Counted from the stretch's first letter, positions 111 to 17,735 are shown. The stretch is 18,597 bases of DNA from Sedimenticola sp. (GCA_040505955.1 JBEVXT010000432.1:1-18597); one strand, 5' to 3'. Program-made: numbers and translations. Notes: generated from the sequence alone by a model not told the origin.

Positions 111-175
111 AACCAATAGCACGCTAAAGAGACTACACTGATGTCGTTCTGGTCATATAGGTGAAAGGAGTCGTG

Positions 176-1312
176 ATGCACAAATACTTCAAATCACAGC
201 CACCACTACTGCTCGCCGCCCTTGTACTGGTTCTCTGCTGCAGCCTGCCACCCACCGCACAAGCAGCCAATGACTTCAAGGTGGTGACTCTGACTAAGGG
301 GTTAGAACACCCCTGGAGCATGGCTTTTCTTCCCGATGGCAGGCTGCTGGTAACAGAACGTCCCGGACGGCTGCGAGTGATCGAAAACGGTCGCCTGCTT
401 TCACAGCCGGTTGAGGGGCTACCGCCGATCACCCCTCGGGGACAGGGTGGCCTGTTGGATGTAGTACTGCACCCCGATTACAAAAACAACGGCTGGATCT
501 ACCTCTCCTACGCAGCCCCAGGAAAAGGGGGCATAGGCACTGAGGTGGGCCGTGGACGACTGCAGGATAACCGCCTTGTCGATTGGCAAGTGCTCTTTCA
601 ACTGCAGCCAAAGAGCGGTACCGGCCACCACTTCGGCTCGCGGCTGGTATTCGATAAAAAGGGTTACCTCTATATCACCGTCGGTGATCGGGGGGAGAGA
701 AAACGGGCGCAAAGGCTTGATGACCATGCAGGTTCAGTCATTCGCCTGCACGATGACGGCCGTATTCCAAAAGATAATCCTTTCAACGGAAAAACCGGCG
801 CACACCACGAAATCTACAGCTATGGTCATCGCAACCCTCAGGGTGCAGTATTGCACCCAGACAGCGGGAAACTGTGGATTCACGAACATGGCCCCCAGGG
901 AGGCGATGAGATTAATATCATCGCCGCCGGGGAGAACTATGGCTGGCCGGTGGTCAGCTATGGAAAGGAGTACGGTAGCGGCTTCTCAATCGGTGAGGGC
1001 ACTCACAAATCGGGTATTACCCAGCCAATCCACTACTGGGTACCCTCCATCGCCCCCTCCGGCATGACCTTTTACAACGGTGACCGGTTTCCACAATGGC
1101 GGGAAAACCTGTTTGTCGGCTCACTAAAATTCCAGTTACTGGTACGCCTGGAACTGGATGGCGAAAAGATAGCAAAAGAGGAGCGCTTGCTGAAAGGAGC
1201 GTTGGGGCGCATACGTGATGTCCGCAGCGGACCGGATGGCTTTATCTACCTGCTGACCGACTCCCCTGATGGTCAGCTGGTTAGACTGGAGCCCGCAGGA
1301 TATAAAAGGTAA
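176..1312 (+). CDS. yliI: Soluble PQQ-dependent aldose sugar dehydrogenase (YliI/Asd family), secreted
   Basis: The track ORF 161-1312 begins with GTG. ATG at 176 is preferred because the RBS AAAGGAG (164-170) lies 5 nt upstream. The N-terminus is a signal peptide (LLLAALVLVLCCSLPPTAQA). The motif GLEHPWSMAFLPDGRLLVTERPGRLRV and the beta-propeller-like GxW/PDG repeats are typical of YliI-type glucose/sorbosone dehydrogenases. Confidence 0.85.
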   Translation: MHKYFKSQPPLLLAALVLVLCCSLPPTAQAANDFKVVTLTKGLEHPWSMAFLPDGRLLVTERPGRLRVIENGRLLSQPVEGLPPITPRGQGGLLDVVLHPDYKNNGWIYLSYAAPGKGGIGTEVGRGRLQDNRLVDWQVLFQLQPKSGTGHHFGSRLVFDKKGYLYITVGDRGERKRAQRLDDHAGSVIRLHDDGRIPKDNPFNGKTGAHHEIYSYGHRNPQGAVLHPDSGKLWIHEHGPQGGDEINIIAAGENYGWPVVSYGKEYGSGFSIGEGTHKSGITQPIHYWVPSIAPSGMTFYNGDRFPQWRENLFVGSLKFQLLVRLELDGEKIAKEERLLKGALGRIRDVRSGPDGFIYLLTDSPDGQLVRLEPAGYKR

Positions 1313-1349
1313 CGGGTAACTATTCAGCACAGTAATCCAGAACTCAGGC

Positions 1350-1413
1350 GTAGGAGCGAACTTGTTCGCGAAGAGCATGTTTCGTAGTCCATCGCGAACA
1401 AGTTCGCTCCTAC
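1350..1413. repeat. REP-like extragenic palindrome, copy 1: 22-bp perfect inverted arms GTAGGAGCGAACTTGTTCGCGA around a 20-nt loop
   Basis: Left arm 1350-1371 and right arm 1392-1413 are exact reverse complements. Each arm also contains the self-palindrome GCGAACTTGTTCGC. An identical structure recurs at 17575-17638. The outer sequence GTAGGAGCG...CGCGAAG matches the Pseudomonas-type REP consensus with a different core. Confidence 0.85.
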
Positions 1414-1561
1414 AACACCTCTGTTCCACCATCACTGTGGTTTTCAGGATTTTGCTACAGAGCCGGTTTAAGGATAAAAAGACACAAAATGCGTGTTTAT
1501 GCGTGCAGATGATTATTTTTTAACACTGAAGAAACACCCACTCGGGATACTTCCCTATTGA

Positions 1562-2428
1562 TCAATGTACTGTTTGGTCCAATCCCACCTCGAATTTTGT
1601 AAATATAGCTTGGCTCATGACCCTGTTTGACATTTTCGAATTTAAACCCCCTCCCATGCCGTAATAGCGGGTTATCTGACTGTACAACTGCAGAAGCCAG
1701 GATTGAAATTTTGGTATCATGATCATTTTATAGGAATCTACAGCACTTGGTTTCCCATTACTCTTCCAGGCCTTGATCGCGAACTCAACTTCCGGCGTGA
1801 GAAGGGTCATAAAGCGGTTGAACAGAAACGAAGGAACGCGATCATGCTTTTTAAATAATCGCATACCGATTTGTTCCTCAATCCTACTACCTCCGCCACC
1901 CTCCGTGCGCATTCGGCTATCCATAGCTCGGTATATCCACCCGTCATAATCTCTGGTGGTTTCAGACTGCGATATAGAGAGACCAATGGATGGCTCTAAC
2001 CCAACAGTAAGTATTGTTTTGCTCAGTTTCTGCCCCGACCGAAAGGCCCCCAGGGTGTTAAAGGCTACCTTACTTCCCTTATTGAATTTCGCAAGCATCT
2101 TATCGGTCCGGTCAAAGTTCAAGCGGTATACCGCTCTTTTATCCAGACTCCCACAGCCACGATATGTGGCAGACATTTTTACACAATATCCAGCCATTGG
2201 CAGCTCCCCGATGAATAGAGTATGGATTTTGAGGGCGCGCCGGTTACTGACTCTTAATTTAAATTCCTGCATGCATGAAAAGGCAATGCACTTGAGTGCG
2301 GCTTGTTTTGCAAATTCATACGTTTCTGTTTCACTTTCCTTTTGTGCTTTAGCCATATGGCTCAACCAAAAAAACACAACAGAATTTCTCATGGATTGAG
2401 ACCGAATAAAATCATGTATTGAGGACAT
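1562..2428 (-). CDS. Hypothetical protein, 288 aa, no recognisable family; lies in an AT-richer stretch
   Basis: Longest ORF in the region. A strong RBS AAGGAGG sits 4-5 nt upstream of the ATG at 2428. No signal peptide or TM segment is evident. Base composition is visibly lower in GC than the flanking genes. Confidence 0.55.
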   Translation of the reverse strand: MSSIHDFIRSQSMRNSVVFFWLSHMAKAQKESETETYEFAKQAALKCIAFSCMQEFKLRVSNRRALKIHTLFIGELPMAGYCVKMSATYRGCGSLDKRAVYRLNFDRTDKMLAKFNKGSKVAFNTLGAFRSGQKLSKTILTVGLEPSIGLSISQSETTRDYDGWIYRAMDSRMRTEGGGGSRIEEQIGMRLFKKHDRVPSFLFNRFMTLLTPEVEFAIKAWKSNGKPSAVDSYKMIMIPKFQSWLLQLYSQITRYYGMGGGLNSKMSNRVMSQAIFTKFEVGLDQTVH

Positions 2429-2669
2429 GGGACCTCCTTATAGGTCTGACAATCCAACAGAAAAACAGATGTGTGAACTGCGTTGACCACAGGATAAGGC
2501 ATCCATGGCTCCCCTGACAACCACCTTTCATATCACGGATGTGACACACCCCATCGAGATATCCACCATAGCCGTGGCAGACAGGATCAGCAGAGACAGA
2601 ATCAGGACACCCATCATTTAGTGCTACCCCTATTCCCGCTGATACCGAGCGCTACTTGATAAGGCTGAA

Positions 2670-3058
2670 ATAGAATTACTACCTCCCGATGAAAGCCTAA
2701 GGAAGAAAGGGCAGCGCGGTCGATTGAAGCGAACAAAGGCTCGTAATCTTCTTGAGCGCCTGTGCAACTTTGAGGATGACGTGTTGCGGTTTATGGTAGT
2801 AAAGAAGGCACCCTTTACCAATAATCAAGGTGAGAGAGGCCTGCGAATGACCAAGGTTCATCAGAAGGTGTCTGCTGTTTTCGTTCTATGATGGGTGCAG
2901 AGTATTTCAGTCGAATTCACAGCTATATATCCGCCTGCCGCAAAAATGGGGCATCGTCCACTGAGGCGCTCAGGCTCTTGTTCCAGGGTGAGATGTCTGC
3001 GTTCATCAATCCAGGTACCGGAATAGTTACAATCCGCCCCCATTTTTTCCTCAGTTAA
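2670..3058 (+). pseudogene. Remnant of a DDE transposase gene: only the C-terminal ~125 codons remain, 5'-truncated and split by a frameshift near 2880-2891
   Basis: Frame A (2670-2891) translates to ...ARNLLERLCNFEDDVLRFMVVKKAPFTNNQGERGLRMTKVHQKVSAVFVL*. Frame B (2891-3058) translates to MGAEYFSRIHSYISACRKNGASSTEALRLLFQGEMSAFINPGTGIVTIRPHFFLS*. Joined, they reproduce the conserved C-terminal signature of a transposase family (PFTNNxAERxxRMxKVxQKxSGxFRSxxGAxxFxRIRSYxSTCRKNG...LFxGxxPxFI). This signature is IS66-C-terminus-like or ISL3-like; the exact IS family is uncertain. There is no upstream catalytic part because the opposite-strand gene occupies 1562-2428. Confidence 0.6.
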
Positions 3059-3134
3059 AACCGTTTCAACCGCTCAGTGGTTTCTGGATCGAGGAAACCG
3101 GTAATCGTTGCTTCCGTTTCGCGCCGCAGTGCGG
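3032..3134. repeat. Direct repeat DR1: a ~103-bp copy, ~96% identical, of the 3' end of the enoyl-CoA hydratase gene plus ~20 bp of its downstream sequence
   Basis: 3032-3134 reads atccgcccccattttttcctcagttaaaaccgtttcaaccgctcag...cgcgccgcagtgcgg. It aligns with 13235-13338 with 3 substitutions and 1 indel, and the sequences diverge immediately outside. The repeat ends in the palindrome CCGCAGTGCGG. Confidence 0.85.
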
Positions 3135-3311
3135 TTGGGTTGGAGACAACCAAAACCAAGAGCAGAAGAATGCTTACAAGTCGGCTTGGCGGTTTCTCCT
3201 TATGTGACCGTTGATGACAGTAGGTGTTCTATTCTCGGACAGGCTCCTAAATGTCTCCTTTTGGCATGAGTTATACCGGACAGTAGTGAGTGAAAATAAT
3301 ACTTCTCTGAA

Positions 3312-6300
3312 TCACTCATTATCTTCACCACTTGGCTTTTTTCTCTTCGGCGCATAGCGCTTTGTTTTTACCTGTTCGATACTTTTTAAATCATCACGTA
3401 GTGTTCGAATTTCCGAAAAGATGTCGACCATATTCTGCTGGGTTTTTAGGTCGATTTTCAGTTTACCCTCCATCGAATGAACCAGTGGGTAGATGCTGTG
3501 TTCGAATGTGTCTGCGATAACCGAGAGGATTTTACTGAGCCCAGGCACCGGTTGATTGACCACTTCAATATTGTAATCGACGTTTTGCAGTGCCTCCCTG
3601 ACTCTGCCGATCTCGGCAACCACGCTTTCCCGCCCCTCTTTTTCTGATATATCAGCCACTGGCGAGAGCCGTTGATCCAGAAGTGTGGCAATGGTTTCCA
3701 TGCTTTTTCCCAAATCATAGAGTTGGGATACCACCTTGGCACCACTGTCGGCATCATCACCACCGAGACTTCTGTTTTTCAGAAATGCCTGAAGAATTTC
3801 AGCCCAGCGCTGCCGTTCCTGTTCTGTTTGGTTGCCTCGTAGTTCCGCCAGTTTAAGCAGGTTCTCCTCTGCCCCGGATGTCAGCAGTTGTGCCTCTCCG
3901 AGATAGTGGTCGCTGATCATCTGCATCAGCTCTTGGTTATTCATTACGGCTGATACTTTTTCAGCCATCTTATTCATGTTGCGATAGCTGCCCTGTAGTT
4001 TGAAGGTCGGCTCTGTGCGATATCTGTCATCTTGTGCGGCAGAGGCGATATAGCGTTGATTGACCTTCAGCACAATATCCCGAATCTGGTAGAGCTTTTT
4101 CAGCACTTCGACAATTTCGTTGATCTCCGCGCCACTGTATTGATGTGCCAACTCGGTGCTGGCGATGTTTTTCCCCTTTGCCATCTGCATCAGTTTATAG
4201 ACATCGTCCATCTCTCTGGTGGCAAGTGGTGCCAGTACTCGGTTGGAGGTCAGGCAGTTCTCGATATAGCTGGAGGCAAACTGCGCTTGCATACCGCCCA
4301 GAATGTCACCCAGGTTATAGATATCGGCACGATTTGCCAGCATATCCGGTACCTTGAACACTTCGCCCGATTCGGTATAGGGATTGCCAGCCATGACCAG
4401 ACAGAATTTCCGCCCTCTCATATCGTAGGTTCTTGTTTTGCTTTTCCAAACCCCTTCGATCCTGCGGGTACCATCACCAAGGGAGATGAATTTTTGCAGA
4501 AACTCGGGATTGGTGTGCTGGATATCATCGAGATAGAGCATCACGTTATTACCCATCTCGAAGGCCAGGTTGAGCTTTTTCAACTCCTGTGCTGCAGTGG
4601 CATTCGGTGCCTGGGCAGGATCCAGTGACAATACGCTGTGGCCAAGCGAAGGGCAGTTGATTTTCATAAAAATCAGGCCCAGCCTGCTGGCTACATACTC
4701 CATCAAAGTGGTTTTACCGTAACCGGGTGGCGAGATCATCATCAACAGCCCCATCAGATCGGTGCGCTTGCCTTCACCGATACTCCCCATCTGCTTTGCC
4801 AGATTGTCACCAATCACCGGCAGGTAGGCATCGTTGATCAACCGGTTTCTGACAAAGGAGCTGAGTGGCTTGGCCTTGAACTCTTCGAGATGAAGCCCCT
4901 CCCGCTCTTCGCTGATGATCTGGTGACGGGTTTTTAGATAGCGATGGTAGCCGGGTATTACAACCGCCTGGTGGTGTTGCTGGCGGAGCAAGAAATCATC
5001 CAGCGAAAACTGTAGTGTCTGTTTTTTTATTCTGGAGTGGTCACCCAGCAAGCCAGTTATGGTCAGCTCAATATCGGCTTCTGTGGATCTGCGGTCGATG
5101 CGCTCATCACTATTGATAAGTGCGACTGCTTCTGGAATATAGCCCGCCAGCCTGCTGAGCTGTTTACTCTCCACCAGCGCTTCCAGCCAGGCTTCAGTGA
5201 GTGCCCAGCGCTGTGCCACTCTGCCTTTAAGCTTATCCAGAGATGTCTGGTACTTACGCCATGATGAATCGGTCAAAGCTCGCTTCAGCTCATCGGCCAG
5301 TTCTCTGGCGTAGCGACTGACGATAAATTCGGCTCGCTCTCTACCCAACTCCGCAACCAGGTAACCGGCCGCACGCTGAATATCGAGCGCTGACACCGGA
5401 ATGACATGCGTTTCGAGAAAGAGGGTCAGTGACTGCTCCACTTCCGCCACCAGCAGTTGAATCGCCTTCGACTGACTGAGTTCGTGACGCATCTGATAGG
5501 CTGACTGAGCACGCTCGGGCCAGCTCTTGTGGGTGAAGTTAAATGTTGCACTTTGAGTCGATCCGGGCTGCAGGTTGGCCCAGAATATCTGAGCCAAACC
5601 CCGACTGAGCGGATCATAGCGCAGCAGGTCACCCCGCTCCAGGGCAGGCAACAGCTGTTTTAAAATAAGTGCGGCATCATGATCATGCACCCCCTTCTCA
5701 TATCCTTCCTTGTAACGGGGAGAGGAGAACTCCCTTGCCAGCTTCAACAGCCCGCTCTCATCACTCAATAGCCCGGTCAGACGCTCTGTGGTGAGGTTAC
5801 TCTCCTGCCTTTCTGCTGCCTCGATGATCAGATTGGCCAGATACTCACCCCGATAGAGCTGAGGGCTCTCGGATTCCAGCGGCATCTCCCAATATTGCCG
5901 TAGCGCCATCAGTTGACTGTTTTCGATCGGCTCGAAAAACTCGGTTCCGGTCAGGTGCAGGTTCAACTCCCCATCACGAGGAATGATGGTCAGGTCTAAC
6001 TCCTGGGTGTTAACACTGAAGCGATGGCGTGGCCCCAACCTGATGACTTGACCACCCGCCTCGTAGATCTCGGACTTATCCCTCAGTGAGCGAAGTGCCT
6101 GTTCTTTGATCGATTTAAAGCGCGCTTCGACATCATCCGCCTTTACCCGGCTGTCCAGTTCACCCAGGCGCTCTACCAACTCCCGCACCTTGATCACCAG
6201 GGCATCCGATGCAAAGTAGGTATTCAACTCATCCGCTTCGGTAAACTTTAGTGAGCGTCGTTCAATATTACTGAGGATACGGGATGCGGCATCGGCCACA

Positions 6301-8627
6301 GACTGTGCCTTACGCTGTCGCTCATCCAGCAGTTGTTGTTTGTGCGTTTCAAAGGATTCATAGAGCTCTTCCCGCTTTGCCATAATATCGGCAAGGAACT
6401 CGTCATGATCACTGAATTGGCTCTCCAGCTCTTCGAGTTGCACCAGCAGACGTGACAGTTGCTCATCACAACGCTCTGGGGTGGTGGCCATTCCGAGGGC
6501 GTTGGAGATACTTTGGGAGAAGAGTTTAAACTGTGCGCTGAACTGGGCTACCGCCTCTTCTGAACCAAGACTTTTCTGTTTATGCCTAGCACTGGCTTTG
6601 CTTTGATTGAGCTGAGAGTAGATTCCCGATATGGCGTCAATAATGCGCGTTCTAACGGTAGCATCCTGCACTTTGAGGGTGGTCATCAACTCAGACAACA
6701 GGTCAAGTCCCGATGCTGTGGATTCAATCACTTCAATCAGGGGCGTCAACAGGGCGATGGTATCCGCCTTTTTCACCTCTCTGTTCAGATTGTCTATCTT
6801 ATCCTGATAGGGCGACAACGCATCCTCTGAAGCCAGAAAGGTGATGGTTCTCCCGCTCAGACTTTCCTGACGCTTTATTAGCTCCTGATCCAACACATCT
6901 ATACGCTGAAGGTCGATATAGCGATGCTCACGAATCGTAGTCAGATGCCCTCTTTGATGACGAAGGCTATCCAGGGCCCGCACATAATCCTCTGCTGTAT
7001 GCCAGCTATCAGGCTGGATACTACGCAGGATCTCCTGCTGCTTTGCCTCCGCCTCTGCCATGCTCTTTTTTGATTGTCGGCGGATACTTTCAACTTTCTC
7101 AAACTCATCGATCACCAGCTCTGCCGTCGTTGCAATTTCATGCACGATAGTGGCTATCTCATCGACCTCTTCATCCTCAATCCAGTAGTGGTCGTCAAAC
7201 AGGCCCTGGGAGGATTTATTGAGATCTTCGTAGTGGCGTACCGATACCTCCTGATTCTCGATAATTCGACTGATGCTGAAGAGGCTGGATATACCCCGCA
7301 CCAGTTCGGCATTGCCGATGCGCCCCATAAAGCTCTGGCTGGCAGGCGTCTGACTGGCAAACTCCTGGCTTGTATAGGGGGTACTCCATACCTGCATGGG
7401 ATGGATGCGGGTCGGCTCACTTTCCGCAGAGAAGATAATGATGGTGCCATCCTCAGCCAAGGCATAACCGTGCCCAAGTATGGGTGTTTTCAACGCCTTG
7501 TTAATCAGGTTATAACCGAACAGTGCGACCTCACCGGCCTCGCGCTCATAGAATATGTAGAGCACATCTTCACCGTTGGGAGAGCGGACAACCCGTTTGA
7601 TGGTATATCCGGACAGGCCATCATCAAAGGTTTTGTATTCACCATTTTGCAGATAGTAACCACCGGGAAATGCAATGCCGTGATCTTCAGGCAGTTGCAC
7701 ACAGGAGTCACCGATCGCATCTATGCGGATAACACTTTGGGTCTGGGTGTTGAATACCAGATAGCGCCAGTTCTCTTCTCGATAGGGACGTATCTTCAGA
7801 AGAATAAGGGAGCCGATCTCTGCGTAGTGGATAGCCGCGTCGTCCAGAGACTGGGTCTTGTCTTCCACCGGTTCCCGGTAGATACCCAAACCATCCTTTG
7901 TGTTGTTCTCAACCTTGATCGTTAGATCTCCGGTGACGGTTTCAACAAATACTTTATCGAGGATGGAAACGTGGGGATGCGGACCATTGACAATATCTTC
8001 ACGGGTGGTTTCACTCCACTCAAAGTCGTGGGCAGGAGGCAGTTGAATATCTCGTTCACCACGATTATCCATGTAGGTAACTTCGCTGCCATCTGCGGAA
8101 ACAGACCAACGGAATACACGCAGATCATCCAAACGCTCGCCGATCTGAAAACCCGCCAGTAGCTTCCCCTGTTTGACTGTAAGTTCTACCAGACGCGTGT
8201 GTTTGTAGTAGCGATAGAGTTCTTCAAAATCTGTTCTGAAGTTTGCCTGATCCAAAAAGCTACCCGTGATGGAGGCCGCCTCGATCTCATAACCTGCCTT
8301 ACCACCATTAACATGAAACAGGGAAAATACATCGCTTATCCTGGTCTCCTTTTTCAGACCGATAAAAACGTTGTAGCCAAATAGCAGATACGTACCCACC
8401 TGAACAATGTCCCGGGCAACACTGTTGTTCTCGGTGCGAACACGAATACGTGCAGCCAGTTCCATGCCGGAACTTCCGAACTCACTCAGGCGGCTATCAT
8501 TAAGACGGGTGGTCGCTTGACTCAAGCGATTGCCCTGGTTCAGCAGCCGCTTACGAATCACCTCGTAAGCACCGCCTTCTGCAACCGCACTGTTAACAAT
8601 GCCGGTGGTATCTTCCTGCTGTACCAT
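3312..8627 (-). CDS. Giant 1771-aa protein with a beta-rich N-terminal domain (~aa 1-480), a long coiled-coil/helical region (~aa 500-1150), a single MoxR/AAA_5-type AAA+ ATPase module (~aa 1280-1480) and a helical C-terminal region
   Basis: Uninterrupted 5.3-kb ORF. An RBS AAGGA lies 9 nt upstream of the ATG at 8627. Walker A PPGYGKTTL is at nt 4704-4730 and Walker B MLYLDDIQH at nt 4517-4540. The downstream segment CLVMAGNPYTESGEVFKVPDMLANRADIYNLGDIL matches the MoxR/AAA_5 pattern (xATxNP...LPxALxxRF). The central region is rich in E/L/R/Q heptad-like sequence. The gene is transcribed in the same direction as the flotillin gene and separated from it by 214 nt. Confidence 0.85.
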   Translation of the reverse strand: MVQQEDTTGIVNSAVAEGGAYEVIRKRLLNQGNRLSQATTRLNDSRLSEFGSSGMELAARIRVRTENNSVARDIVQVGTYLLFGYNVFIGLKKETRISDVFSLFHVNGGKAGYEIEAASITGSFLDQANFRTDFEELYRYYKHTRLVELTVKQGKLLAGFQIGERLDDLRVFRWSVSADGSEVTYMDNRGERDIQLPPAHDFEWSETTREDIVNGPHPHVSILDKVFVETVTGDLTIKVENNTKDGLGIYREPVEDKTQSLDDAAIHYAEIGSLILLKIRPYREENWRYLVFNTQTQSVIRIDAIGDSCVQLPEDHGIAFPGGYYLQNGEYKTFDDGLSGYTIKRVVRSPNGEDVLYIFYEREAGEVALFGYNLINKALKTPILGHGYALAEDGTIIIFSAESEPTRIHPMQVWSTPYTSQEFASQTPASQSFMGRIGNAELVRGISSLFSISRIIENQEVSVRHYEDLNKSSQGLFDDHYWIEDEEVDEIATIVHEIATTAELVIDEFEKVESIRRQSKKSMAEAEAKQQEILRSIQPDSWHTAEDYVRALDSLRHQRGHLTTIREHRYIDLQRIDVLDQELIKRQESLSGRTITFLASEDALSPYQDKIDNLNREVKKADTIALLTPLIEVIESTASGLDLLSELMTTLKVQDATVRTRIIDAISGIYSQLNQSKASARHKQKSLGSEEAVAQFSAQFKLFSQSISNALGMATTPERCDEQLSRLLVQLEELESQFSDHDEFLADIMAKREELYESFETHKQQLLDERQRKAQSVADAASRILSNIERRSLKFTEADELNTYFASDALVIKVRELVERLGELDSRVKADDVEARFKSIKEQALRSLRDKSEIYEAGGQVIRLGPRHRFSVNTQELDLTIIPRDGELNLHLTGTEFFEPIENSQLMALRQYWEMPLESESPQLYRGEYLANLIIEAAERQESNLTTERLTGLLSDESGLLKLAREFSSPRYKEGYEKGVHDHDAALILKQLLPALERGDLLRYDPLSRGLAQIFWANLQPGSTQSATFNFTHKSWPERAQSAYQMRHELSQSKAIQLLVAEVEQSLTLFLETHVIPVSALDIQRAAGYLVAELGRERAEFIVSRYARELADELKRALTDSSWRKYQTSLDKLKGRVAQRWALTEAWLEALVESKQLSRLAGYIPEAVALINSDERIDRRSTEADIELTITGLLGDHSRIKKQTLQFSLDDFLLRQQHHQAVVIPGYHRYLKTRHQIISEEREGLHLEEFKAKPLSSFVRNRLINDAYLPVIGDNLAKQMGSIGEGKRTDLMGLLMMISPPGYGKTTLMEYVASRLGLIFMKINCPSLGHSVLSLDPAQAPNATAAQELKKLNLAFEMGNNVMLYLDDIQHTNPEFLQKFISLGDGTRRIEGVWKSKTRTYDMRGRKFCLVMAGNPYTESGEVFKVPDMLANRADIYNLGDILGGMQAQFASSYIENCLTSNRVLAPLATREMDDVYKLMQMAKGKNIASTELAHQYSGAEINEIVEVLKKLYQIRDIVLKVNQRYIASAAQDDRYRTEPTFKLQGSYRNMNKMAEKVSAVMNNQELMQMISDHYLGEAQLLTSGAEENLLKLAELRGNQTEQERQRWAEILQAFLKNRSLGGDDADSGAKVVSQLYDLGKSMETIATLLDQRLSPVADISEKEGRESVVAEIGRVREALQNVDYNIEVVNQPVPGLSKILSVIADTFEHSIYPLVHSMEGKLKIDLKTQQNMVDIFSEIRTLRDDLKSIEQVKTKRYAPKRKKPSGEDNE
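4180..4800 (-). other. AAA+ ATPase module of the giant protein (Walker A GYGKTT, Walker B LDD, sensor/NP motif)
   Basis: The motifs were read directly from the translation. It is a single AAA module, not a tandem pair. The NP(x)ESG / ANRADI arrangement indicates the MoxR/dynein-like AAA_5 clade rather than the classical Vps4/FtsH clade. Confidence 0.7.
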
Positions 8628-8733
8628 TATTTGATCCTTATTTAATCACCAAGGTAGCTACTTATCGATGTACTGAATAGTGGGTGTCTTTCTGAAAACA
8701 GGTAGCCTTACACCCCGTACGATGGTGCTGCAA

Positions 8734-8760
8734 CACAGATCACGGCAGTGGTGATCTGTG
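8734..8760. promoter_or_regulatory. Perfect 10-bp stem / 7-nt loop hairpin (CACAGATCAC-ggcagtg-GTGATCTGTG) in the flotillin-to-AAA+ spacer; no U-tract, so not a classical terminator
   Basis: Exact inverted repeat read from the sequence. It lies ~80 nt downstream of the flotillin stop and ~105 nt upstream of the giant gene start. It is a candidate RNA processing/stability element or protein-binding site. Confidence 0.5.
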
Positions 8761-8794
8761 TTACCTCTGGTAAAAATACCCTCTTGACGGGGTA

Positions 8795-8817
8795 TTGAAT
8801 AGTTACAAACTATTCAA
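8795..8817. promoter_or_regulatory. 23-bp AT-rich perfect palindrome TTGAATAGTT-ACA-AACTATTCAA, 25 nt downstream of the flotillin stop; candidate dimeric-regulator site
   Basis: Exact palindrome. Its half-site GAATAGTT(AC) is the same motif that recurs at 1315-1328, 3019-3032, 10821-10834, 10932-10944 and 8672-8685. Confidence 0.5.
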
Positions 8818-8841
8818 TATGTATAAAGAGCGAGACGCTCT

Positions 8842-10785
8842 TCACTCGCGATTAGCGCTCTCTTTGTCACTACGACTATCGATAAGCTTTTCCAGCAAGG
8901 CGGTAACCAGGCCACTCTTGCTACTGAAACCATCGACGGCCTTTCCCAGCGAGAGTGATTTGGCAAAGGTATCGAAGAAGTGTCCTTCACCGCCCACGAT
9001 GTCAATATTGGCGGCTTTAAGTGCATTGGAAAGTACCCCGGCATTCTCTCTGGCAACCTCTTTACCTGCATCAATGGAAGCAACCGCCTCTTTGAATGCG
9101 GTCTCCAGACCCATACGGAACTCTTCATGGTCACGGGCCTTGTCGCTCATGCTATCCATGGCTTCAAACTTATCCACCAGGCCCTCGGCCTCGGCCTTGA
9201 ACTGCTCGCGTGTAACATCCGCCTCAGCCATACCGATCTTCTTCACCGCATTTGCTTCGGCGCTGCCTTTTGCGTCGATAACACTGGCCTCTGCCCCACC
9301 CTGTGCTCCGGTGACTTTCGCTTCCGACTCACCTTTGGCATCGATTACGCGGGCTTCAGCCAGCCCCTCTTTCTCCAGCGCATCGGCCTTTGCCTCCTGT
9401 ACCTTGGCTTCCGCAAGACCTGGTGCTGCCACCTCGGCCTGTACACCCTCAGCCAGTTTCTTCTTACCATCCGCCTCCTTGGCAACCGCCTCAAGTTCTG
9501 CCTGAGCGATGGTGGTAATCTCATTGGCGCGGTGTTTTGCGGAAAGTTCTTCCGCTTCAGCCGCTTTCACCAGTTTCACCTTCTCTTCATCTGCCTGGGC
9601 TTCCGCCCCAAGCACCTGTACCTGCTTGGCACGATCTGCCTCTGATACCTCACGCACCTCTTTGATGCGCTCCTCCTCGATGGCAACTGTTTTATCGACT
9701 ACCACCCGCTCTCGAATCACATTGGCAATCTCTTTCTTCTCCAGTTCGATCGCCTTCTCAGCTTCAATACTCTGCAACTCAACTTCACGTTCACGGGAGA
9801 CGATCTCCAGATCCTTGGCCCGGGTTACTTTCTCCACTTCGATCACAACTGCACGCTGGCGGTTCTGCTCCGCCACCTCAATCTCACGCTGCTGATTCTC
9901 CTTCTGAACCGCTAAATCCTGATCAGTAGAAATGGTGGCCGATTCAGATTTCTTTCGCTCCTCCTCCTGAATGCGGATGGTCTCCGCCTCTTCCCTTGCT
10001 TGTATGCTTGCCACCTCTCTTGCCTGCTTCGCCTCCGCATCTGATTGCTGGCGCTCCAGCTCAAGCATCGATTCAATGGTTTCGACATTCTTCTTCTTGA
10101 TCGCTAACTCTTCATCCCGCTCAAGTATATTGGTGTGTATATTTTGAGCAGCTGTCAGGGCTGTGATTTTTTTGATACCTTCGGCATCGAGGATATTGTT
10201 TGGATCAAGGGATGATTTCGGCGTCTGTTCAAGATAGTCAATTGCGACATCCTCAAGCACATAGCCGTTCAGATCATCACCGATCACTTCAATGATTTTC
10301 TCTCGGAATTCCAGACGATTTTCAAACAGCTGTACAAACTCTATCTGCTTACCAACAGTTTTCAATGCTTCTGAAAATTTGGCATTGAACAACTGCTCTA
10401 CCGACCCCTTGTCAGATGCCCTGTCGGCACCCAGAGACTTAGCCACCTTGAGCACATCTTCTGCGGTCTCATTCACTCTGAGATAGAATGCAACGGTAAT
10501 GTCTGCACGCATATTATCTGCACATATCAGCCCATCTTTTCCCCGGCGATCAACCTCAAGGGTAATCAGGGAGACCCGCATCAACTCCTTCTTATAGATA
10601 ATCGGGTAGACCAACGCACCGGTAAAGTGCACCTTTGGCTTGGCGCTCATGTCATTCACGATCAGGGCCGTACCCTGATCAACCTTGATATAGAATGCCT
10701 TGAACAGTATCGCCAACCCCATCAGGATTGCGAAAAATATTCCAGCACCAGTAGCTATCGGCATAAGTACAGATAAATCAGCCAT
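8842..10785 (-). CDS. yqiK: Flotillin-like SPFH/band-7 protein (YqiK family), 647 aa, with an N-terminal TM helix and a long A/E/K-rich C-terminal repeat region
   Basis: N-terminal membrane anchor IATGAGIFFAILMGLAILF. SPFH-core-like segment (...MRADITVAFYLRVNE...). Extended EA-repeat coiled coil, with tandem units AEARVIDAKGESEAKV / AEASVIDAKGSAEANA at nt ~9250-9360. RBS GGAG lies 8 nt upstream of the ATG. The gene order NfeD then flotillin matches the yqiJK pair. Confidence 0.85.
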   Translation of the reverse strand: MADLSVLMPIATGAGIFFAILMGLAILFKAFYIKVDQGTALIVNDMSAKPKVHFTGALVYPIIYKKELMRVSLITLEVDRRGKDGLICADNMRADITVAFYLRVNETAEDVLKVAKSLGADRASDKGSVEQLFNAKFSEALKTVGKQIEFVQLFENRLEFREKIIEVIGDDLNGYVLEDVAIDYLEQTPKSSLDPNNILDAEGIKKITALTAAQNIHTNILERDEELAIKKKNVETIESMLELERQQSDAEAKQAREVASIQAREEAETIRIQEEERKKSESATISTDQDLAVQKENQQREIEVAEQNRQRAVVIEVEKVTRAKDLEIVSREREVELQSIEAEKAIELEKKEIANVIRERVVVDKTVAIEEERIKEVREVSEADRAKQVQVLGAEAQADEEKVKLVKAAEAEELSAKHRANEITTIAQAELEAVAKEADGKKKLAEGVQAEVAAPGLAEAKVQEAKADALEKEGLAEARVIDAKGESEAKVTGAQGGAEASVIDAKGSAEANAVKKIGMAEADVTREQFKAEAEGLVDKFEAMDSMSDKARDHEEFRMGLETAFKEAVASIDAGKEVARENAGVLSNALKAANIDIVGGEGHFFDTFAKSLSLGKAVDGFSSKSGLVTALLEKLIDSRSDKESANRE

Positions 10786-10965
10786 AACAGTTTCTCCATT
10801 TCCTTTTAGTTAACTATTTTGGTAACTATTCAGCGGATGTGAAGTATAGTTCGGGATCGGAGTCGATTGCGGCAAGAAACTACAAATTCCCCTACCATCT
10901 TCAACCCAATCAACTCCGACCCCGTACCCAACTGATATAGTTACGCTCGAATTATTGTAAATACA

Positions 10966-11658
10966 CTATATTCCAGAAAACTCTTTTTCTGAAATGACGT
11001 GGTAGATATTTTCATTCTCCAGGTACTCAATGAGCACAACACTATCACCTCTTTTGAATACCTGTTCTCCGATAGTCCGCACCTTCAATATCAACCCCGC
11101 ACCACCATCTTCCAGCGTCGCTTCTCCAAAGTGATGATCAACTCTTGAGGTTCGAACAACCGCAATCTGCCCCAATACAATTTTTTCTGTATGCTGCTGC
11201 GCCTTGTTGAACAGCTGACGCAAGGGTCTTATAACAACGGCTGTAATCATGGTCGCAACAAACAGTGAGGCGATGAATATTGGAATACCTGCCAGGTACT
11301 TCAGTACTCCCTCTGGAAAAAATCCCAGAAGAAAATAGACCAGGTAGTAACAGAGAAGCCATCCAAACAGTGATATAAACGAGACAGTGATGGTGACAGG
11401 AACACCATGAAGTCCAAATTTCATCATCAGCCCGGCTAATGCATCAGGCGTGGGTATCTCACTATCCGCATTGAGACCAGTAGGGCCGTCGAAATCAGGA
11501 AGGTCAATATCAAGGATATCGATATCCACCAGTCCCAATACGGCCACTAACCAGTAGAGCGCAACCAGCGCCAAAAAAAAGGTGAAAATGGCTGTTGGGA
11601 AGGATGAAATATTCTGATAAAACGGATCCATCCCTTCATTTAGGAATATCGCAAACAT
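10966..11658 (-). CDS. yqiJ: NfeD-like membrane protein (YqiJ / DUF1449-like): N-terminal multi-TM region plus C-terminal OB-fold-like domain
   Basis: Hydrophobic helices (FTFFLALVALYWLVAVLGLV, VSFISLFGWLLCYYLVYFLLGFF, IFIASLFVATMITAVVI). A C-terminal beta-rich tail (IVLGQIAVVRTSRVDHHFGEATL...GDSVVLIEYLENENIYHV) is typical of short NfeD partners of SPFH proteins. RBS GAGG lies 5 nt upstream of the ATG. The gene sits immediately upstream of the flotillin gene. Confidence 0.7.
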   Translation of the reverse strand: MFAIFLNEGMDPFYQNISSFPTAIFTFFLALVALYWLVAVLGLVDIDILDIDLPDFDGPTGLNADSEIPTPDALAGLMMKFGLHGVPVTITVSFISLFGWLLCYYLVYFLLGFFPEGVLKYLAGIPIFIASLFVATMITAVVIRPLRQLFNKAQQHTEKIVLGQIAVVRTSRVDHHFGEATLEDGGAGLILKVRTIGEQVFKRGDSVVLIEYLENENIYHVISEKEFSGI

Positions 11659-11706
11659 GCTTACCTCACAACTGATGCTTAAGAAATGCTAGCTGGCTAT
11701 TCGATA

Positions 11707-12396
11707 TTACCTGTTTTTTCGCTTCAGGCGCGCAAGAATATCATCCGCACTGCTGCTTTTGGCCGTGATACCCGCCTCTTCGAGTTTCGTCTGAAGCGTT
11801 GACTCAGAGCTCTCTTCTGCCAACTCAGCAGCGGCTGTCATCTGCGCACCTTTTAACGCCTGCTTCTCCTTAATGCGCTCAAGGGAATCCATCGCTGTAC
11901 GCAGTTTGGTATTGGAGCCACTATGGCGCTCAGCAACTGCCTGCTGTGCACGCTGTACACTCTCAGTAGCCTTGACCGTATCAACCTGCTGCTTGAGTCG
12001 TTTAATATTGCCCTCTGCCTGCTGTATTGCCAGGCGCAACATTATTGAACTCTGGGCATAGCCGATCCCGGACTCAGTCTCCAGCTGCAGCTGATTCTCT
12101 ATATGGGCTATTTTTTCAGCAACCTCTTGAGCAAGATTTTCGTCACCTTTATCGAGAGCCTTAAGCGCATACTCCTCGTACTCTTTGACCTGACTTTTCA
12201 GTTTACTGCCCTTCTCTTCAGAGAGTTTCTGGTGCGCCATGATGGCAGCCAGGCCATTCCTGGACTGCTTGAGTTCTTCGGAGGCGTCGCGCACCTCCTG
12301 ATCCAGAATTCGAAGTGCCTGACTGTCAATGATCGCTTCACCCGCCTCATTTGCGCCGCCACGGAGTGCGGTCAACATTTTTGCCCAAACATTCAT
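11707..12396 (-). CDS. PspA/IM30/Vipp1-family protein (YjfJ-like; ESCRT-III superfamily), 229 aa
   Basis: The translation MNVWAKMLTALRGGANEAGEAIIDSQALRILDQEVRDASEELKQSRNGLAAIMA... shows the characteristic PspA N-terminal amphipathic helix followed by a long coiled coil and a basic C-terminus (ILARLKRKNR). The start was set at the second in-frame ATG (12396; 1-nt gap after the upstream stop) on homology to PspA N-termini. The alternative ATG at 12417 would overlap the upstream gene by 20 nt. Confidence 0.8.
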   Translation of the reverse strand: MNVWAKMLTALRGGANEAGEAIIDSQALRILDQEVRDASEELKQSRNGLAAIMAHQKLSEEKGSKLKSQVKEYEEYALKALDKGDENLAQEVAEKIAHIENQLQLETESGIGYAQSSIMLRLAIQQAEGNIKRLKQQVDTVKATESVQRAQQAVAERHSGSNTKLRTAMDSLERIKEKQALKGAQMTAAAELAEESSESTLQTKLEEAGITAKSSSADDILARLKRKNR

Positions 12397-12397
12397 T

Positions 12398-13036
12398 TCA
12401 GATTGCCCCTTTAGCATCGACCTGGATATTCAAGTACTCACTGTAAGCTTCGGTCGCCTGAATTACATTGCTGGCCAGCACCTCTATCTCGAAAACAACG
12501 CTGGTAAGAATAGAGCTCGAACTCAGTGCGCCAAACATATGGTAGTAATCATCATCTCCCGACATGCTGTCCAAGCTCACCGAGGAGAGTGGAAAGTACT
12601 TATGGGTTCGAAGTAGGGTTTCATTAAATGCAGACGGGTCTTTTACATCTGAAATCGCCCACAACACCACTTCTGCAATAATCTGTTCGCCGGAAACCGT
12701 CAGGAAGATCGGTAGATCACCGTACTCATGCATGACAATATGCAGCGAAGACTCAATCCCTTCGATCAATTCAAGTGAAGCCTGTCCAGTGGTAAATAAC
12801 TCCACATTCTGCAGTGCTTCGTAGAGAGTAGTAGTGGTCCATTCCGGTGATTTCATGGTCATCATTTCTTCTCCTGGTGACGTAGTAGAGAGATCGGCCT
12901 TTCGTAAATGTTTTTCCAGCGCTGCCAGTCGTTTGGCATTTTCAGGCCGTATCCAGATCTCTTTTTTAACCAACCCCTGCTCACGCAGCTTTCTTCTATA
13001 TTCTCGTTGGTAATACGCTGAAGTTTTCTTGCTCAT
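12398..13036 (-). CDS. First gene of the operon: YjfI-like (DUF2170-like) protein with an extra ~55-aa highly basic N-terminal extension
   Basis: The position immediately upstream of a YjfJ-type PspA gene mirrors E. coli yjfI-yjfJ. The C-terminal ~150 aa (from MMTMKSPEWTTTTLYEALQN...) is compatible with DUF2170 size. The N-terminus MSKKTSAYYQREYRRKLREQGLVKKEIWIRPENAKRLAALEKHLRKAD is Lys/Arg-rich and looks like a small DNA-binding (RHH/Arc-like) module. The DUF2170 assignment is from context and memory, not alignment. Confidence 0.45.
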   Translation of the reverse strand: MSKKTSAYYQREYRRKLREQGLVKKEIWIRPENAKRLAALEKHLRKADLSTTSPGEEMMTMKSPEWTTTTLYEALQNVELFTTGQASLELIEGIESSLHIVMHEYGDLPIFLTVSGEQIIAEVVLWAISDVKDPSAFNETLLRTHKYFPLSSVSLDSMSGDDDYYHMFGALSSSSILTSVVFEIEVLASNVIQATEAYSEYLNIQVDAKGAI

Positions 13037-13043
13037 AATCCGT

Positions 13044-13072
13044 ATTATAGAATATTACATGTAAGCTGTCAA
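13044..13072 (-). promoter_or_regulatory. Consensus sigma70 promoter for the yjfI-like to AAA+ operon: -35 TTGACA (13067-13072), 17-bp spacer, -10 TATAAT (13044-13049)
   Basis: The minus-strand reading is tttTTGACAgcttacatgtaatattcTATAATacggattATG. Both hexamers are perfect consensus with optimal spacing. The -10 ends only 7 nt before the ATG at 13036, which implies a leaderless or near-leaderless transcript. Confidence 0.65.
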
Positions 13073-13087
13073 AAACTTACATGTAAT
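13054..13087. promoter_or_regulatory. Operator-like twin palindromes: two copies of TTACATGTAA, centre-to-centre 22 bp, one overlapping the -35 flank and one inside the promoter spacer
   Basis: ATTACATGTAAG-ctgtcaaaaa-CTTACATGTAAT is a 12-bp inverted repeat. Each half contains the self-complementary decamer TTACATGTAA. No other copy occurs in the window. Confidence 0.6.
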
Positions 13088-13234
13088 TAAACTTCGTCCT
13101 AAGGTTGAACCCTCTGTCTTTAACCGGTGGTTGTTGAGTCTCATCTCATGCAGGTTTGAGTGATGCTCTTTTTTTGTCACGAACGAACTTTTTCCTTGCA
13201 TCACGGGGCGATCACTCGGGGTCGCCTAACATAA

Positions 13235-13338
13235 ATCCGCCCCGATTTTTTTCCTCAGTTAAAACCGTTTCAATCGCTCAGTGGTTTCTGGATCGAGGAA
13301 ACCGGTAATCGTTGCTTCCGTTTCGCACCGCAGTGCGG
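13235..13338. repeat. Direct repeat DR2: the partner of DR1, forming the authentic 3' end (last ~26 codons) and downstream flank of the enoyl-CoA hydratase gene
   Basis: Aligned with 3032-3134 as described for DR1. The 10.1 kb between the repeats holds the PspA/flotillin/AAA+ operon. Confidence 0.85.
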
Positions 13339-14020
13339 CATTGATATCTGTAGCTGCGCTCTGATTTAGCGCGCGTTTCATCGCACGCACAGAGAGTGGC
13401 GGAAGTGCGCTTAATTTTGCCGCCACCGCCTCTGCTTCATCGGCTAACTGGTCATCACTTACGACACGCCAGGCTACCCCCATCTTTAGCAGAGTTACGG
13501 CATCGTACTGCTCGCCAAGAAATAACATCTCGCGCGCTTTGTTAAGGCCTACCAGGGCAGGCAGTAGTGAGGTAACCGCTCCGGTAACGAACAGATTGAG
13601 CGATACCTCTGGGAAAAATGCGCGAGCGCTCTCCCCCCAGATTGGAAAATCACAATTTATCGCCCACTCAAAGCCCCCGCCAACCGCCCAACCATTAATG
13701 GCACCAACGACAGGCTTTGCACCATAGACAATCGAATGGGTGGCGCGTTGAATTGCATCTACAAACTCCCTTGCCTCTGACTCATTGGCGGGATGCACAT
13801 GGTTTCGTCGATCATCGCCAGCACAAAATCCACATCCCTTACCTGTAAAGATGATGGCTCGCGTCATTTCGTCGGCATTGGCATCATCAAATGCCAGGGC
13901 TACATCATCAATCAATTGGCGGTTCATTGCGTTGAGACTATCCGGACGGTTCAATGCAATGGTTCGGACACCGTTGTCTCCAAGAGTGCTCAGTATCGAT
14001 TTGTATTCAAAAGTACTCAT
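13259..14020 (-). CDS. Enoyl-CoA hydratase/isomerase (crotonase superfamily), 253 aa
   Basis: Crotonase signatures are present (FCAGDD oxyanion-hole region, GAINGWAVGGGFEWAINCDF). The start ATG overlaps the stop of the upstream ligase gene (TGATG), which indicates translational coupling. Confidence 0.85.
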   Translation of the reverse strand: MSTFEYKSILSTLGDNGVRTIALNRPDSLNAMNRQLIDDVALAFDDANADEMTRAIIFTGKGCGFCAGDDRRNHVHPANESEAREFVDAIQRATHSIVYGAKPVVGAINGWAVGGGFEWAINCDFPIWGESARAFFPEVSLNLFVTGAVTSLLPALVGLNKAREMLFLGEQYDAVTLLKMGVAWRVVSDDQLADEAEAVAAKLSALPPLSVRAMKRALNQSAATDINAALRCETEATITGFLDPETTERLKRF

Positions 14021-15323
14021 CAGTAATTCCTGATTACGCGTTTTGTTTTTCCTTCGGTTTTTGGGAAGCCGCCAGTCGGCAGCACACTTACCGTGGCACT
14101 CGCACCAAGGGCAGATTTAATGGCGCGGGAAACAGTCTCGGCCAGTGATCTGCTGTTCTCGTACCCTGGTGCCAACTCAACCTGCACAGGCAGCACGTCA
14201 TAAGGGGGTTTGGTATCCAACACAATACGGTAATCACCCGTTAGCTCTTCATGCTGATTCACCACGCTGGCGATCATGGTCGGGAAGATATTCAGGCCGC
14301 GTATCACCACCATGTCATCGCTGCGCCCCACCACCCGGAATCGCATGCCGTGGCGCCCGCAGCGACAGGGTTCTGTGGTATCCACCGCTATAATGTCACC
14401 CGTGCGAAAGCGCACCAACGGCTGGCACTCACGTTCCAGGTGCGTCAGTACCAGTTCGCCTTCGCTTCCTGATTCAATGGGCAGAGGTTCATTGCTCTCG
14501 GGGTCTATTATCTCTGGGTAGAGCACATCGCCTGCGAGAAAATGTAACCTTGTATCGTATTCGCACTGAGCCGCAAAGTTAGACAATACATCTGACACGC
14601 CATAATTTGCATTGCGCGGTTCCATCCCCCAGGTCTCTTTAATACGTTCCCGAAATGCCGGATCATCCAGACCCGCTTCACCACCAAAAAGACCGAGCCG
14701 CAGCCCAAGGTCGCGAGGCTTGAGTCCTGGATAGATATCAGCGATCACCCGCTCCAGCACGGCAGGGTAGGAGGGTGTGCAGGAGATGGCTGTAATGCCA
14801 ATTTCACGGATCGTCCGTACCAGTAACTCCGTCCCCCCAACCCCAAAGGGAACCACCATGGCACCGGTGTTTTCCAAGGTAAGGTGATCGCTTACGCCTC
14901 CCATCCACATTTGATAGTTCAGACAGTGGACTACAGTATCTTCAGGCGTTAATCCGGCTGCCCGATGGCTGCGCCCTCCGACGCTTTGGGTGATTTCGCA
15001 ATCCCGTTTTGACAGTGCAAGATTCATCGCTTGCCCGGTGGTACCTGAGGTGCGATGAAGTCGTGTTACCGCAGTGCGGTCAGTCGCAAGATAGTTACCA
15101 AACGGGGGATGTTCCGCCTGGGATTCGCGCAGCATGGATTTTAATGACAATGGTAGTGTTGATATCTCTTGTAACCGCTCTGGTGGTTGGGAGCCGTTCC
15201 ATAGGATTTGATAAAAGGGTGAGTTTTCAATGACCACCCGGCGCTGCCTTTCCCATGCCAATTGTTGATGATTTCTCATCTTTACAGCAGAGAGTGTTTC
15301 CGCATCATCTTTTAGTGTCATAT
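14020..15323 (-). CDS. Phenylacetate-CoA ligase-like (PaaK / coenzyme F390 synthetase family) adenylate-forming enzyme
   Basis: AMP-binding P-loop-like TSGTTGQAM is present. Overall colinearity with PaaK follows (N-terminal DDAETLSAV...QQLAWERQRR aligns with PaaK DPIETASVDELQALQTQRLKW; C-terminal GRSDDMVVIRGLNIFP). The ATG at 15323 is preferred over the in-frame TTG at 15342 by this N-terminal alignment. Confidence 0.8.
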
Positions 15324-15372
15324 GCTTGGTACCCGACTCCAATCGTCTTTACCATAAGCAGCTCTTCAACAA

Positions 15373-15744
15373 TTAAACCCTGAACCTCATATAGTTGGCA
15401 ATCTCATAGGCATCCGGCTTCCCCTCTTCATAACCGAAAAAGCAGATATCCTGTGCCGACCCCTTGCTTGAAGCGGCGATTCCAACAACAAATTCACACT
15501 TGTGTTCGGTGGCTTGACTATAGAGAAACTGCAGGGCTTTCTTTAGATCGGAGCGTCTCTTTGCCTCCAGATTGATTCCCAGATTCCAGAAGGATTCACC
15601 CGCTTCATCTTCACCAGGCTGGTGGCGATCATTAACCAGGGTGGCACTGCCGTCACTCTTTTTCACCCAACCGGCAATCGCCTCACTCATGGGCTCGGCA
15701 ATCGCTTCGAGGTCATCTGATTCAGCATAGATGTAAACTTTCAT
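15373..15744 (-). CDS. Small acidic hypothetical protein (~124 aa) between dctM and the ligase gene
   Basis: ORF with an AGGAG upstream of the ATG at 15744 (MKVYIYAESDD...). The longer track ORF (to 15792) would overlap dctM. No family was recognised. Confidence 0.5.
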   Translation of the reverse strand: MKVYIYAESDDLEAIAEPMSEAIAGWVKKSDGSATLVNDRHQPGEDEAGESFWNLGINLEAKRRSDLKKALQFLYSQATEHKCEFVVGIAASSKGSAQDICFFGYEEGKPDAYEIANYMRFRV

Positions 15745-15752
15745 GGGGCGGT

Positions 15753-17509: not shown

Positions 17510-17516
17510 CACAATC

Positions 17517-17722
17517 GTAACTTCTCAATAAGTTCGTGCACCGGGCCCTGCCAACTGAGAAGGCCCACCTGACTGTAGGAGCGAACTTGTTCGCGATTAG
17601 CTTCGTAGAACACTCTTCGCGAACAAGTTCGCTCCTACGCTAAAAGTTTCGTAATCCCTCAATAATCCTGTGTAGTGGAACAACTCATACACCCCTATGG
17701 CACGGGCTTATTGAGAAGTTAC
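17517..17722. repeat. 206-bp MITE-like intergenic element: perfect 16-bp terminal inverted repeats GTAACTTCTCAATAAG / CTTATTGAGAAGTTAC enclosing REP copy 2, with a degenerate internal direct copy of the terminal repeat
   Basis: 17517-17532 is the exact reverse complement of 17707-17722. Similarity extends a further ~7 bp inward (CGTGC). 17651-17668 (gtaatccctcaataatcc) is a third, degenerate copy. The element fills the dctP-dctQ spacer. Confidence 0.65.
17575..17638. repeat. REP-like extragenic palindrome, copy 2 (same 22-bp arms as 1350-1413; the 20-nt loop differs but shares TTCGTAG)
   Basis: Arms 17575-17596 and 17617-17638 are exact reverse complements and identical to the arms of copy 1. 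Confidence 0.85.
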
Positions 17723-17735
17723 CTCACGATCACGT

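Follow-up and report, generated by a model that had tools for sequence, protein, structure and literature searches.

Phage 21/e14 at icd and ICESt1/3 at fda integrate into the 3ʹ end of a protein gene and bring an element-borne replacement end with them. Cis-mobilizable elements (CIMEs) keep att sites without integrases (PMC5704250). In Escherichia coli, circular molecules with a shortened homologous segment integrate by a single crossover and leave flanking duplications of 109–950 bp (PMC3240628). Insertion sequences (ISs) of the IS66 family have inverted repeats that start GTAAGCG..., GTAACCG... or GTAACTGCTCAGCA, and they generate 8-bp target duplications (PMC12888890, PMC12898284). The bac operon of Pseudomonas aeruginosa, bacABCDEF, corresponds to PA3732–PA3728 (PMC2587700, PMC10948618), and a sigma-54 promoter has been proposed for it in PA14 (PMC10948618). 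Here, we analyzed the whole 18,597-bp contig (JBEVXT010000432.1, hereafter the window) of an NCBI metagenome-assembled genome (MAG; GCA_040505955.1) labelled Sedimenticola sp., in which a bacABCDE-like operon is bracketed by two direct repeats, DR1 and DR2, of the 3ʹ end of an enoyl-CoA hydratase gene (ECH; 13259–14020, minus strand; Pfam ECH_1, E=2e-43). We tentatively read the repeats as a scar of recombination anchored in ECH. All genes of the window are on the minus strand, except for the sugar dehydrogenase gene GSDH and the remnant of an IS66-family element beside DR1.

DR1 (3031..3134) and DR2 (13234..13338), both considered on the minus strand, are direct repeats of 104 and 105 nt, respectively, and are 96.2% identical (self-BLAST, E=5e-43). 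They differ by substitutions at 3041, 3070, and 3122 and by one indel in a T run, and the longest exact run common to both is 51 nt. The original prediction had placed repeats of about 96% identity, with three substitutions and one indel, near 3032–3134 and 13235–13338, and had described a sharp divergence outside them; the alignment confirmed both, with true bounds one to two bases wider and with a similarity that breaks off abruptly at both ends. DR2 consists of 2 nt, the last 25 sense codons of ECH, the stop codon, and 25 nt of downstream DNA, and is, as predicted, the genuine 3ʹ end of the gene with its flank. DR1 holds 2 nt, 25 sense codons, a stop codon, and 24 nt of downstream DNA, while the upstream gene body is absent. 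The peptide translated from DR1 is the ECH C-terminus with one change, Arg for Cys, and an IS66 match in Pfam adjoins it, in agreement with its description as an orphan copy lying directly against a transposase remnant. A multi-copy intergenic repeat unrelated to ECH, of the repetitive extragenic palindromic (REP) or miniature inverted-repeat transposable element type, was also considered and rejected, since the repeat can be aligned with the 3ʹ ends of homologous ECH genes, has two copies in the window, and has a core that was found only in two orthologous metagenome contigs.

The repeat pair contains a single novel joint, at 3134..3135, where the interior of ECH (at about codon 227) meets DNA that lies 177 nt beyond the bacE stop codon. 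The other three borders are the continuous ECH gene, the terminus of the IS66 remnant, and a plain continuation into the DNA upstream of the operon, and the inner joint is the only informative border of the repeats. The Thr in ITGF and the Arg in KRF are lineage-specific residues, present in both DR1 and DR2 and absent from other homologues, which places the source of the second copy in the same genome or in a very close relative.

Metagenome contigs of the Joint Genome Institute (JGI) were scanned once with a 29-mer from the repeat core. Exactly two contigs matched (L097 and L098), both from MOXF01, an assembly independent of the MAG, and both in the integrated form, and no viral contig carried the 29-mer. 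L097 corresponds to 14595 through 11561 of the window, in reverse, at 99.77% identity and spans the ligase gene, ECH, DR2, and bacA/B, with unique DNA on both sides of DR2. L098 corresponds to 2463–10570 at 99.46% identity and spans the IS66 remnant, DR1, and bacE/D, including the same joint at 3134/3135. DR1 and DR2 are each identical between the window and MOXF01, and the four differences between the two copies are the same in both, while the two sequences diverge by 0.2–0.5% overall, with higher values in the IS66 and non-coding part. As copy-specific variants are crossed together with unique flanks in MOXF01, the arrangement is real; and as the four differences are fixed in both strains, the divergence of DR1 from DR2 is older than the split of the strains. 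L098 also has single-base deletions in the AAA+ open reading frame (ORF) of MOXF01, at the positions corresponding to 3965, 5837, and 6296, which are most likely sequencing or assembly errors in MOXF01 and not real frameshifts.

These contigs make it hardly conceivable that the arrangement is an assembly artefact, that is, a chimeric MAG contig threading a 10-kb circle or a second strain through the shared 104-bp sequence. The window is one whole MAG contig, and Logan contigs from SRR28145943 stop near both repeats, as such an artefact would lead one to expect. However, the MOXF01 contigs each cross one repeat into unique DNA with the variants of that copy, and the two copies have four differences and no exact run beyond the 51 nt given above. 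The Logan contig L001 (SRR28145943) is identical to 3229–13200 of the window; its end at 3229 adjoins a between-strain single-nucleotide polymorphism (SNP) at 3228, its end at 13200 is 16 nt from another at 13184, and neither lies at a repeat boundary. Another Logan contig, L009, stops within the IS66 remnant following two mismatches, which is expected where an IS has multiple copies. The Logan ends were first suspected to be structural variants, a suspicion dropped on account of the SNPs near both ends of L001 and the position of the L009 end in multi-copy IS66 DNA.

The outer edge of DR1 is occupied by an IS66-family remnant (2652..3030, plus strand), which comprises the C-terminal part of a frameshifted transposase and an intact right terminus, ...GGAATAGTTAC. 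The match to Pfam DDE_Tnp_IS66 at 2724–2891 (E=4e-7) is partial, covering profile positions 226–275 of 284, and 2652–2944 matched plasmid IS66 remnants by blastn. The end of the IS was defined from the published IS66 ends; intact copies on plasmids and at other loci were sought, and the matches found were remnants themselves. The terminus, ...CCGGAATAGTTAC at 3030, reads 5ʹ-GTAACTATTCCGG from the outside (the reverse complement of 3018–3030) and fits the published ends of the family, which start with GTAA. About 380 bp of the element are left and its left end is deleted, so that only one terminus is seen. The homology between DR1 and DR2 starts at 3031, the base directly after this terminus. 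Because the homology is flush with an intact IS66 end, its outer limit is the point of IS insertion and not an att boundary, and the repeat, with its limit set by the IS, was probably longer at first than it appears today. No second AATCCGCC was found, nor did the sequences left of the IS remnant and left of DR2 match each other. An IS target duplication or a composite transposon as the source of the repeats was rejected, as the target duplications of IS66 measure 8 bp and the window holds a single, truncated copy. The remnant shares the transposase C-terminus and the terminal GTAAC... end with the IS66 family, whereas no left end, no tnpA/B, and no 8-bp target duplication are seen, and the 104-bp repeat is no target duplication of an IS.

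To compare the locus with other copies of the operon, 83 loci with a relative of its flotillin-like protein were fetched (GTDB scan and contig look-ups), nearly all of them with neighbouring operon genes. The operon occurs as a unit in about 80 of these other loci. All five genes stay together in many genera of Oceanospirillales and Cellvibrionales, as well as in Woeseiaceae and relatives of lucinid symbionts, and a three-gene core was present in Polyangiaceae and in one Planctomycetota MAG. Of about 60 loci with sufficient sequence on either side, none showed flanking direct repeats, while the window, used as the positive control, returned 105 nt at 96%. An ECH C-terminal fragment was found at 0 of the 83 loci, and the same held for an adjacent ECH or ligase gene. 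Upon comparing the flank ORFs by BLAST clustering, we found that 349 of 432 clusters were singletons and that the neighbours of the operon vary almost everywhere; the same operon beside other genes, which the original prediction suggested looking for, was seen in many different contexts. The exception is two genes that immediately follow the AAA+ gene, each in about 25 loci, namely a rhomboid-like gene (~180 aa; about 25 of roughly 65 loci with a downstream flank, L010–L062) and a double Zn-ribbon gene (~180 aa, in a similar number of loci). The two probably represent bacF and a seventh gene; the window has neither, and no remnant of them was found at 2400–3400. In the closest relatives of the module (L089–L092 and L099; 85–88% flotillin identity), the operon sits beside toxin–antitoxin genes (PIN/MazE, RES/Xre, PhdYeFM) and an AEP-TOTE/DEAD helicase, which are typical neighbours in the flexible genome.

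The surroundings of the repeats are variable as well. In the complete genome of Ca. Sedimenticola sp. ex Thyasira tokunagai (CP134874.1), the closest complete relative, GSDH and the genes p139–DctM–DctQ–DctP are syntenic with the window and in the same orientation. Synteny delimits a variable interval of 14.1 kb in the window (1297..15373), between the GSDH block (3–1296) and the p139–DctMQP block (15374–18596), while in the T. tokunagai symbiont the interval (L093 11119–16722) holds 5.6 kb of unrelated genes, among them OsmC and an asparaginase fragment. As ECH and the PaaK-like CoA ligase gene next to it both lie inside the replaced interval, ECH is not a conserved target and belongs to the variable segment. 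These two genes form a cassette (13259..15342, minus strand) with a stop/start overlap of their coding sequences, which recurs in unrelated contexts at 59–81% identity (L002–L008). The nearest ECH homologues are only about 80% identical, and beside them the ligase–ECH pair is kept and the downstream genes are all different. No record was found of a protein identical to ECH, to the ligase, or to the product of the 51-aa ORF that crosses 3229. The empty site that the original prediction suggested looking for, with the hydratase abutting yliI, was not present in the closest complete relative, which lacks ECH and the ligase in this interval; the ECH homologues were uninformative, and the 99.5%-identical strain is filled in the same way as the window. 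A difference in composition between the module and the hydratase side, also suggested as a check, was not observed. The GC content at third codon positions (GC3) is 0.46–0.57 in the module, 0.48 in ECH, 0.54 in the ligase gene, 0.60 in GSDH, and 0.65–0.76 in the tripartite ATP-independent periplasmic transporter (TRAP) genes; no compositional step was found at DR2 by GC3 and tetranucleotide distances, and only the TRAP genes are richer in GC3.

One novel joint, duplicated homology, and no recombinase are what general recombination would produce. We hold, tentatively and with a confidence somewhat short of even, that operon DNA with a piece of the ECH 3ʹ end as its anchor was inserted by a Campbell-type or homology-facilitated event, and that the repeats are the duplication left behind as a scar. 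A segment with the bacABCDE operon and a 3ʹ stretch of ECH would have arrived from a closely related donor or from a sister chromosome. It may have been circularised and inserted by one crossover within the ECH homology (Campbell-type), or it may have been a linear fragment that was held by its homology to ECH and sealed with a single illegitimate joint (homology-facilitated illegitimate recombination, HFIR); with the illegitimate end inside the anchor, HFIR would give the same product as the single crossover. By either route, the anchor would be duplicated on both sides of the insert, with one novel joint at 3134/3135, and the gene-proximal DR2 would keep ECH intact while the distal DR1 would be dead. 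An IS66-family element inserted flush with DR1 would then have fixed the visible outer end, and most of the IS and the DNA beyond it would have been deleted later. In this account, the donor, the route of recombination, and the order in which the IS was inserted and the deletion took place are inferred. The single novel joint fits what is expected of HFIR or a single crossover, and the four fixed differences fit two alleles, of donor and recipient, that had diverged before they met at the event, although slow divergence in place is also compatible with them. The locus resembles the E. coli lacZ single-crossover system (PMC3240628) in that the insert is flanked by short direct duplications, alike in geometry and size class (104 bp here), and in that no recombinase is needed. 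It differs in that the event is deduced from a natural genome, the copies have diverged by 3.8%, and an IS cuts the outer copy short.

Several points weigh against an ECH-anchored insertion. The donor form (ECH–bac without DR1) and the recipient form (ECH–IS66 without the operon) were seen in no database sequence, and neither allele was found among the homologues and JGI contigs. The route needs an earlier adjacency of ECH and bac in some relative, which is itself unexplained. For the two coding differences, distant outgroups allow a weak polarisation (n=2), as they agree with DR1 at the synonymous site and match neither copy at the Arg/Cys codon. The neat bracketing of the operon and the small palindrome at the end of the repeats would also be expected of an att-type event, and the data do not separate an ECH-anchored insertion from a tandem duplication in situ.

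The att-type event is how the original prediction had read the locus, with DR1 and DR2 as the attL/attR footprint of site-specific integration. An integrative element would target and restore the 3ʹ end of ECH, like phage 21/e14 at icd; integrase-less today, like a CIME, it would be mobilised in trans, with the 11-mer CCGCAGTGCGG at or near the crossover. We consider this improbable. Direct repeats of a gene 3ʹ end do bracket one discrete operon that is found in other contexts elsewhere, and one of them carries the 3ʹ end of the would-be target gene, as is expected of an att element. They start within the gene and extend past its stop codon, as in the classical geometry, their differences fit an element-borne and a chromosomal 3ʹ end, and the documented CIMEs show that att sites can outlast integrases. 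The imperfect palindrome CCGCAGTGCGG (5+1+5) stands at the gene-internal close of both repeats, and a third exact copy, on the same strand, was observed at 15069–15079 inside the CoA ligase gene, in another reading frame and with no flanking similarity. By our estimate (sequence length over 4^11), about 0.005–0.01 such copies are expected by chance, so that the third copy is unexpected and is left as a curiosity, one that could speak for an att site. Against the att model, no tyrosine or serine recombinase or remnant of one was found among the window ORFs with Pfam, NCBIfam, and PHROGs, and no excisionase gene or pseudogene was seen. The predicted lack of an integrase inside the module was thus confirmed, and it extends to the whole 18.6-kb window, in which scans for tRNA and Rfam RNA also gave nothing. 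There is also no room for one between the repeats: every ORF there is a member of the conserved bac operon, mobility-module remnants are absent, and the non-coding DNA outside the promoter amounts to only 142 and 177 nt. As a crossover core, the role proposed for it, the palindrome is too short for a typical recombinase, and the two spacers (3135–3311 and 13092–13233) have no k-mers of at least 8 nt in common beyond those of shuffles, that is, no common arm-type motifs. Together with the IS-set outer edge, the lack of flanking repeats and ECH fragments at the other operon loci, the accessory nature of ECH, which makes it a poor conserved target, the even composition across DR2, and the lack of an empty-site or circle contig among the repeat-core matches, these results leave site-specific integration poorly supported, and no test that could be run favoured it. 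What stands of the original prediction is that the operon plausibly arrived or was rearranged here, as one self-contained operon is bracketed in a variable, IS-scarred interval; the route by a site-specific island is the unsupported part. The block is like a CIME in being flanked by att-like repeats and in having no recombination or transfer genes, but CIMEs are decayed integrative and conjugative or integrative and mobilizable elements, usually with remnants and a cognate helper, none of which is visible here, and an att function here is putative. Similarly, as with phage 21/e14 and ICESt1/3, the gene 3ʹ end is imperfectly duplicated around the insert and the gene is intact, whereas here neither repeat has an integrase beside it, the target is accessory, and the housekeeping-type cargo is repeat-free elsewhere. 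A bac operon that is an integrase-less cis-mobilizable cassette, moved in and out of the ECH 3ʹ end by an unlinked recombinase recognising CCGCAGTGCGG, appears very doubtful. If it were true, a PspA/flotillin membrane-stress operon would be mobile cargo in relatives of marine sulfur-oxidising symbionts, a rare case of a housekeeping-type stress operon as a cis-mobilizable cassette.

A tandem duplication in situ, which is less likely but is the main rival, would start from ECH and the bac operon as neighbours. The 10.2-kb segment from 13338 to 3135 would have been duplicated, making the joint 3134/3135; IS66 would have inserted 24 nt past the orphan stop codon in the second copy, or a deletion would have reached that point, the rest of the second copy and most of the IS would have been lost, and the four differences would have arisen afterwards. 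This account also needs one novel joint only, and with the IS end as the outer edge it needs no coincidence. The GC3 of the module matches that of ECH and the ligase gene, the module and the ECH–ligase pair have diverged similarly between the two strains, and the frameshifted, decayed IS remnant fits some age. On the other hand, a divergence of 3.8% over 104 nt must build up in place, and the two coding changes that can be polarised would both have occurred in the functional copy, not in the dead one (again a weak point, n=2). Tandem duplications usually collapse by homologous recombination and seldom leave a 104-bp stub, the duplicated unit happens to hold exactly one operon, and ECH is seen beside the bac operon in no other genome. 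An ECH-anchored insertion remains the reading that we favour.

The bracketed operon (3312..13036, minus strand), which fills the 10.1 kb between the repeats, was assigned by Pfam and NCBIfam and is conserved as a unit in the loci described above. In the direction of transcription, its genes encode a BacA/DUF2170 protein (12398–13036), PspA (11707–12417; Pfam PspA_IM30), a 230-aa protein (10966–11658), a flotillin-like protein of 647 aa (8842–10785; named flotillin family protein in the source), and a DUF3686 AAA+ protein of 1771 aa (3312–8627; Pfam DUF3686). Against the NCBIfam equivalog model of BacA, a biofilm regulator (NF050185), the DUF2170 protein reaches 313 bits, which exceeds the curated cutoff of 300. 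It has an N-terminal extension of ~65 aa with a weak match to "plasmid repression protein F" (E=0.002). As in the P. aeruginosa bac operon, BacA (DUF2170), a PspA homologue, a small membrane protein, a flotillin-like protein, and a DUF3686 AAA+ protein follow in the same order, whereas the sixth gene is absent here. The promoter differs too: in place of the sigma-54 site proposed in PA14, the operon has its own sigma-70-type promoter/operator (13044..13091, minus strand; TTGACA-17-TATAAT, a 12/12 match) in which one TTACATGTAA palindrome lies shortly before the −35 hexamer and a second within the spacer. This layout, which looks like a repressor operator, is kept upstream of bacA in many genera (for example, L089 and L099). 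Nucleotide homology to other genera starts at this promoter/operator, and the module is therefore defined comparatively as about 13091 to 3312. On either side of it are lineage-specific spacers for which no homologue was found, one of 142 nt from DR2 to the conserved operator (13092..13233) and one of 177 nt from the bacE stop codon to DR1 (3135..3311).

Outside the repeats, the window carries the PQQ sugar dehydrogenase gene GSDH/yliI (161–1312, plus strand), followed by an orphan 288-aa ORF (orf288; 1562–2428, minus strand). No match for orf288 was found in Pfam, NCBIfam, or PHROGs, and among 1.8 billion representative proteins only its own fragment and a weak match to a 5167-aa repetitive protein were returned; its predicted structure is unusable (mean pLDDT 34.6). 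It may be a decayed fragment, or no gene at all. Upstream of ECH are the genes for the PaaK-like CoA ligase (14020–15342), a 139-aa protein (p139; 15373–15792), and DctM, DctQ, and DctP (15753–18536), all on the minus strand. REP-like elements of 67 nt were observed at 1348–1414 and 17574–17640, each with a 22-nt perfect hairpin (GTAGGAGCGAACTTGTTCGCGA ... TCGCGAACAAGTTCGCTCCTAC), and similar elements are present in the genome of the relative (L093, about 805–872 and 7829–7915).

Taken together, the locus looks like an ordinary scar of recombination and IS activity in a flexible interval, beside an operon of a known type, and its significance beyond the locus is little. It carries a caution, in that a duplicated gene end around a discrete operon is, alone, insufficient to call an integrative island. 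For Sedimenticola, it shows how a conserved bac-type membrane-stress operon (PspA, flotillin, AAA+) came into a variable, IS-scarred interval.

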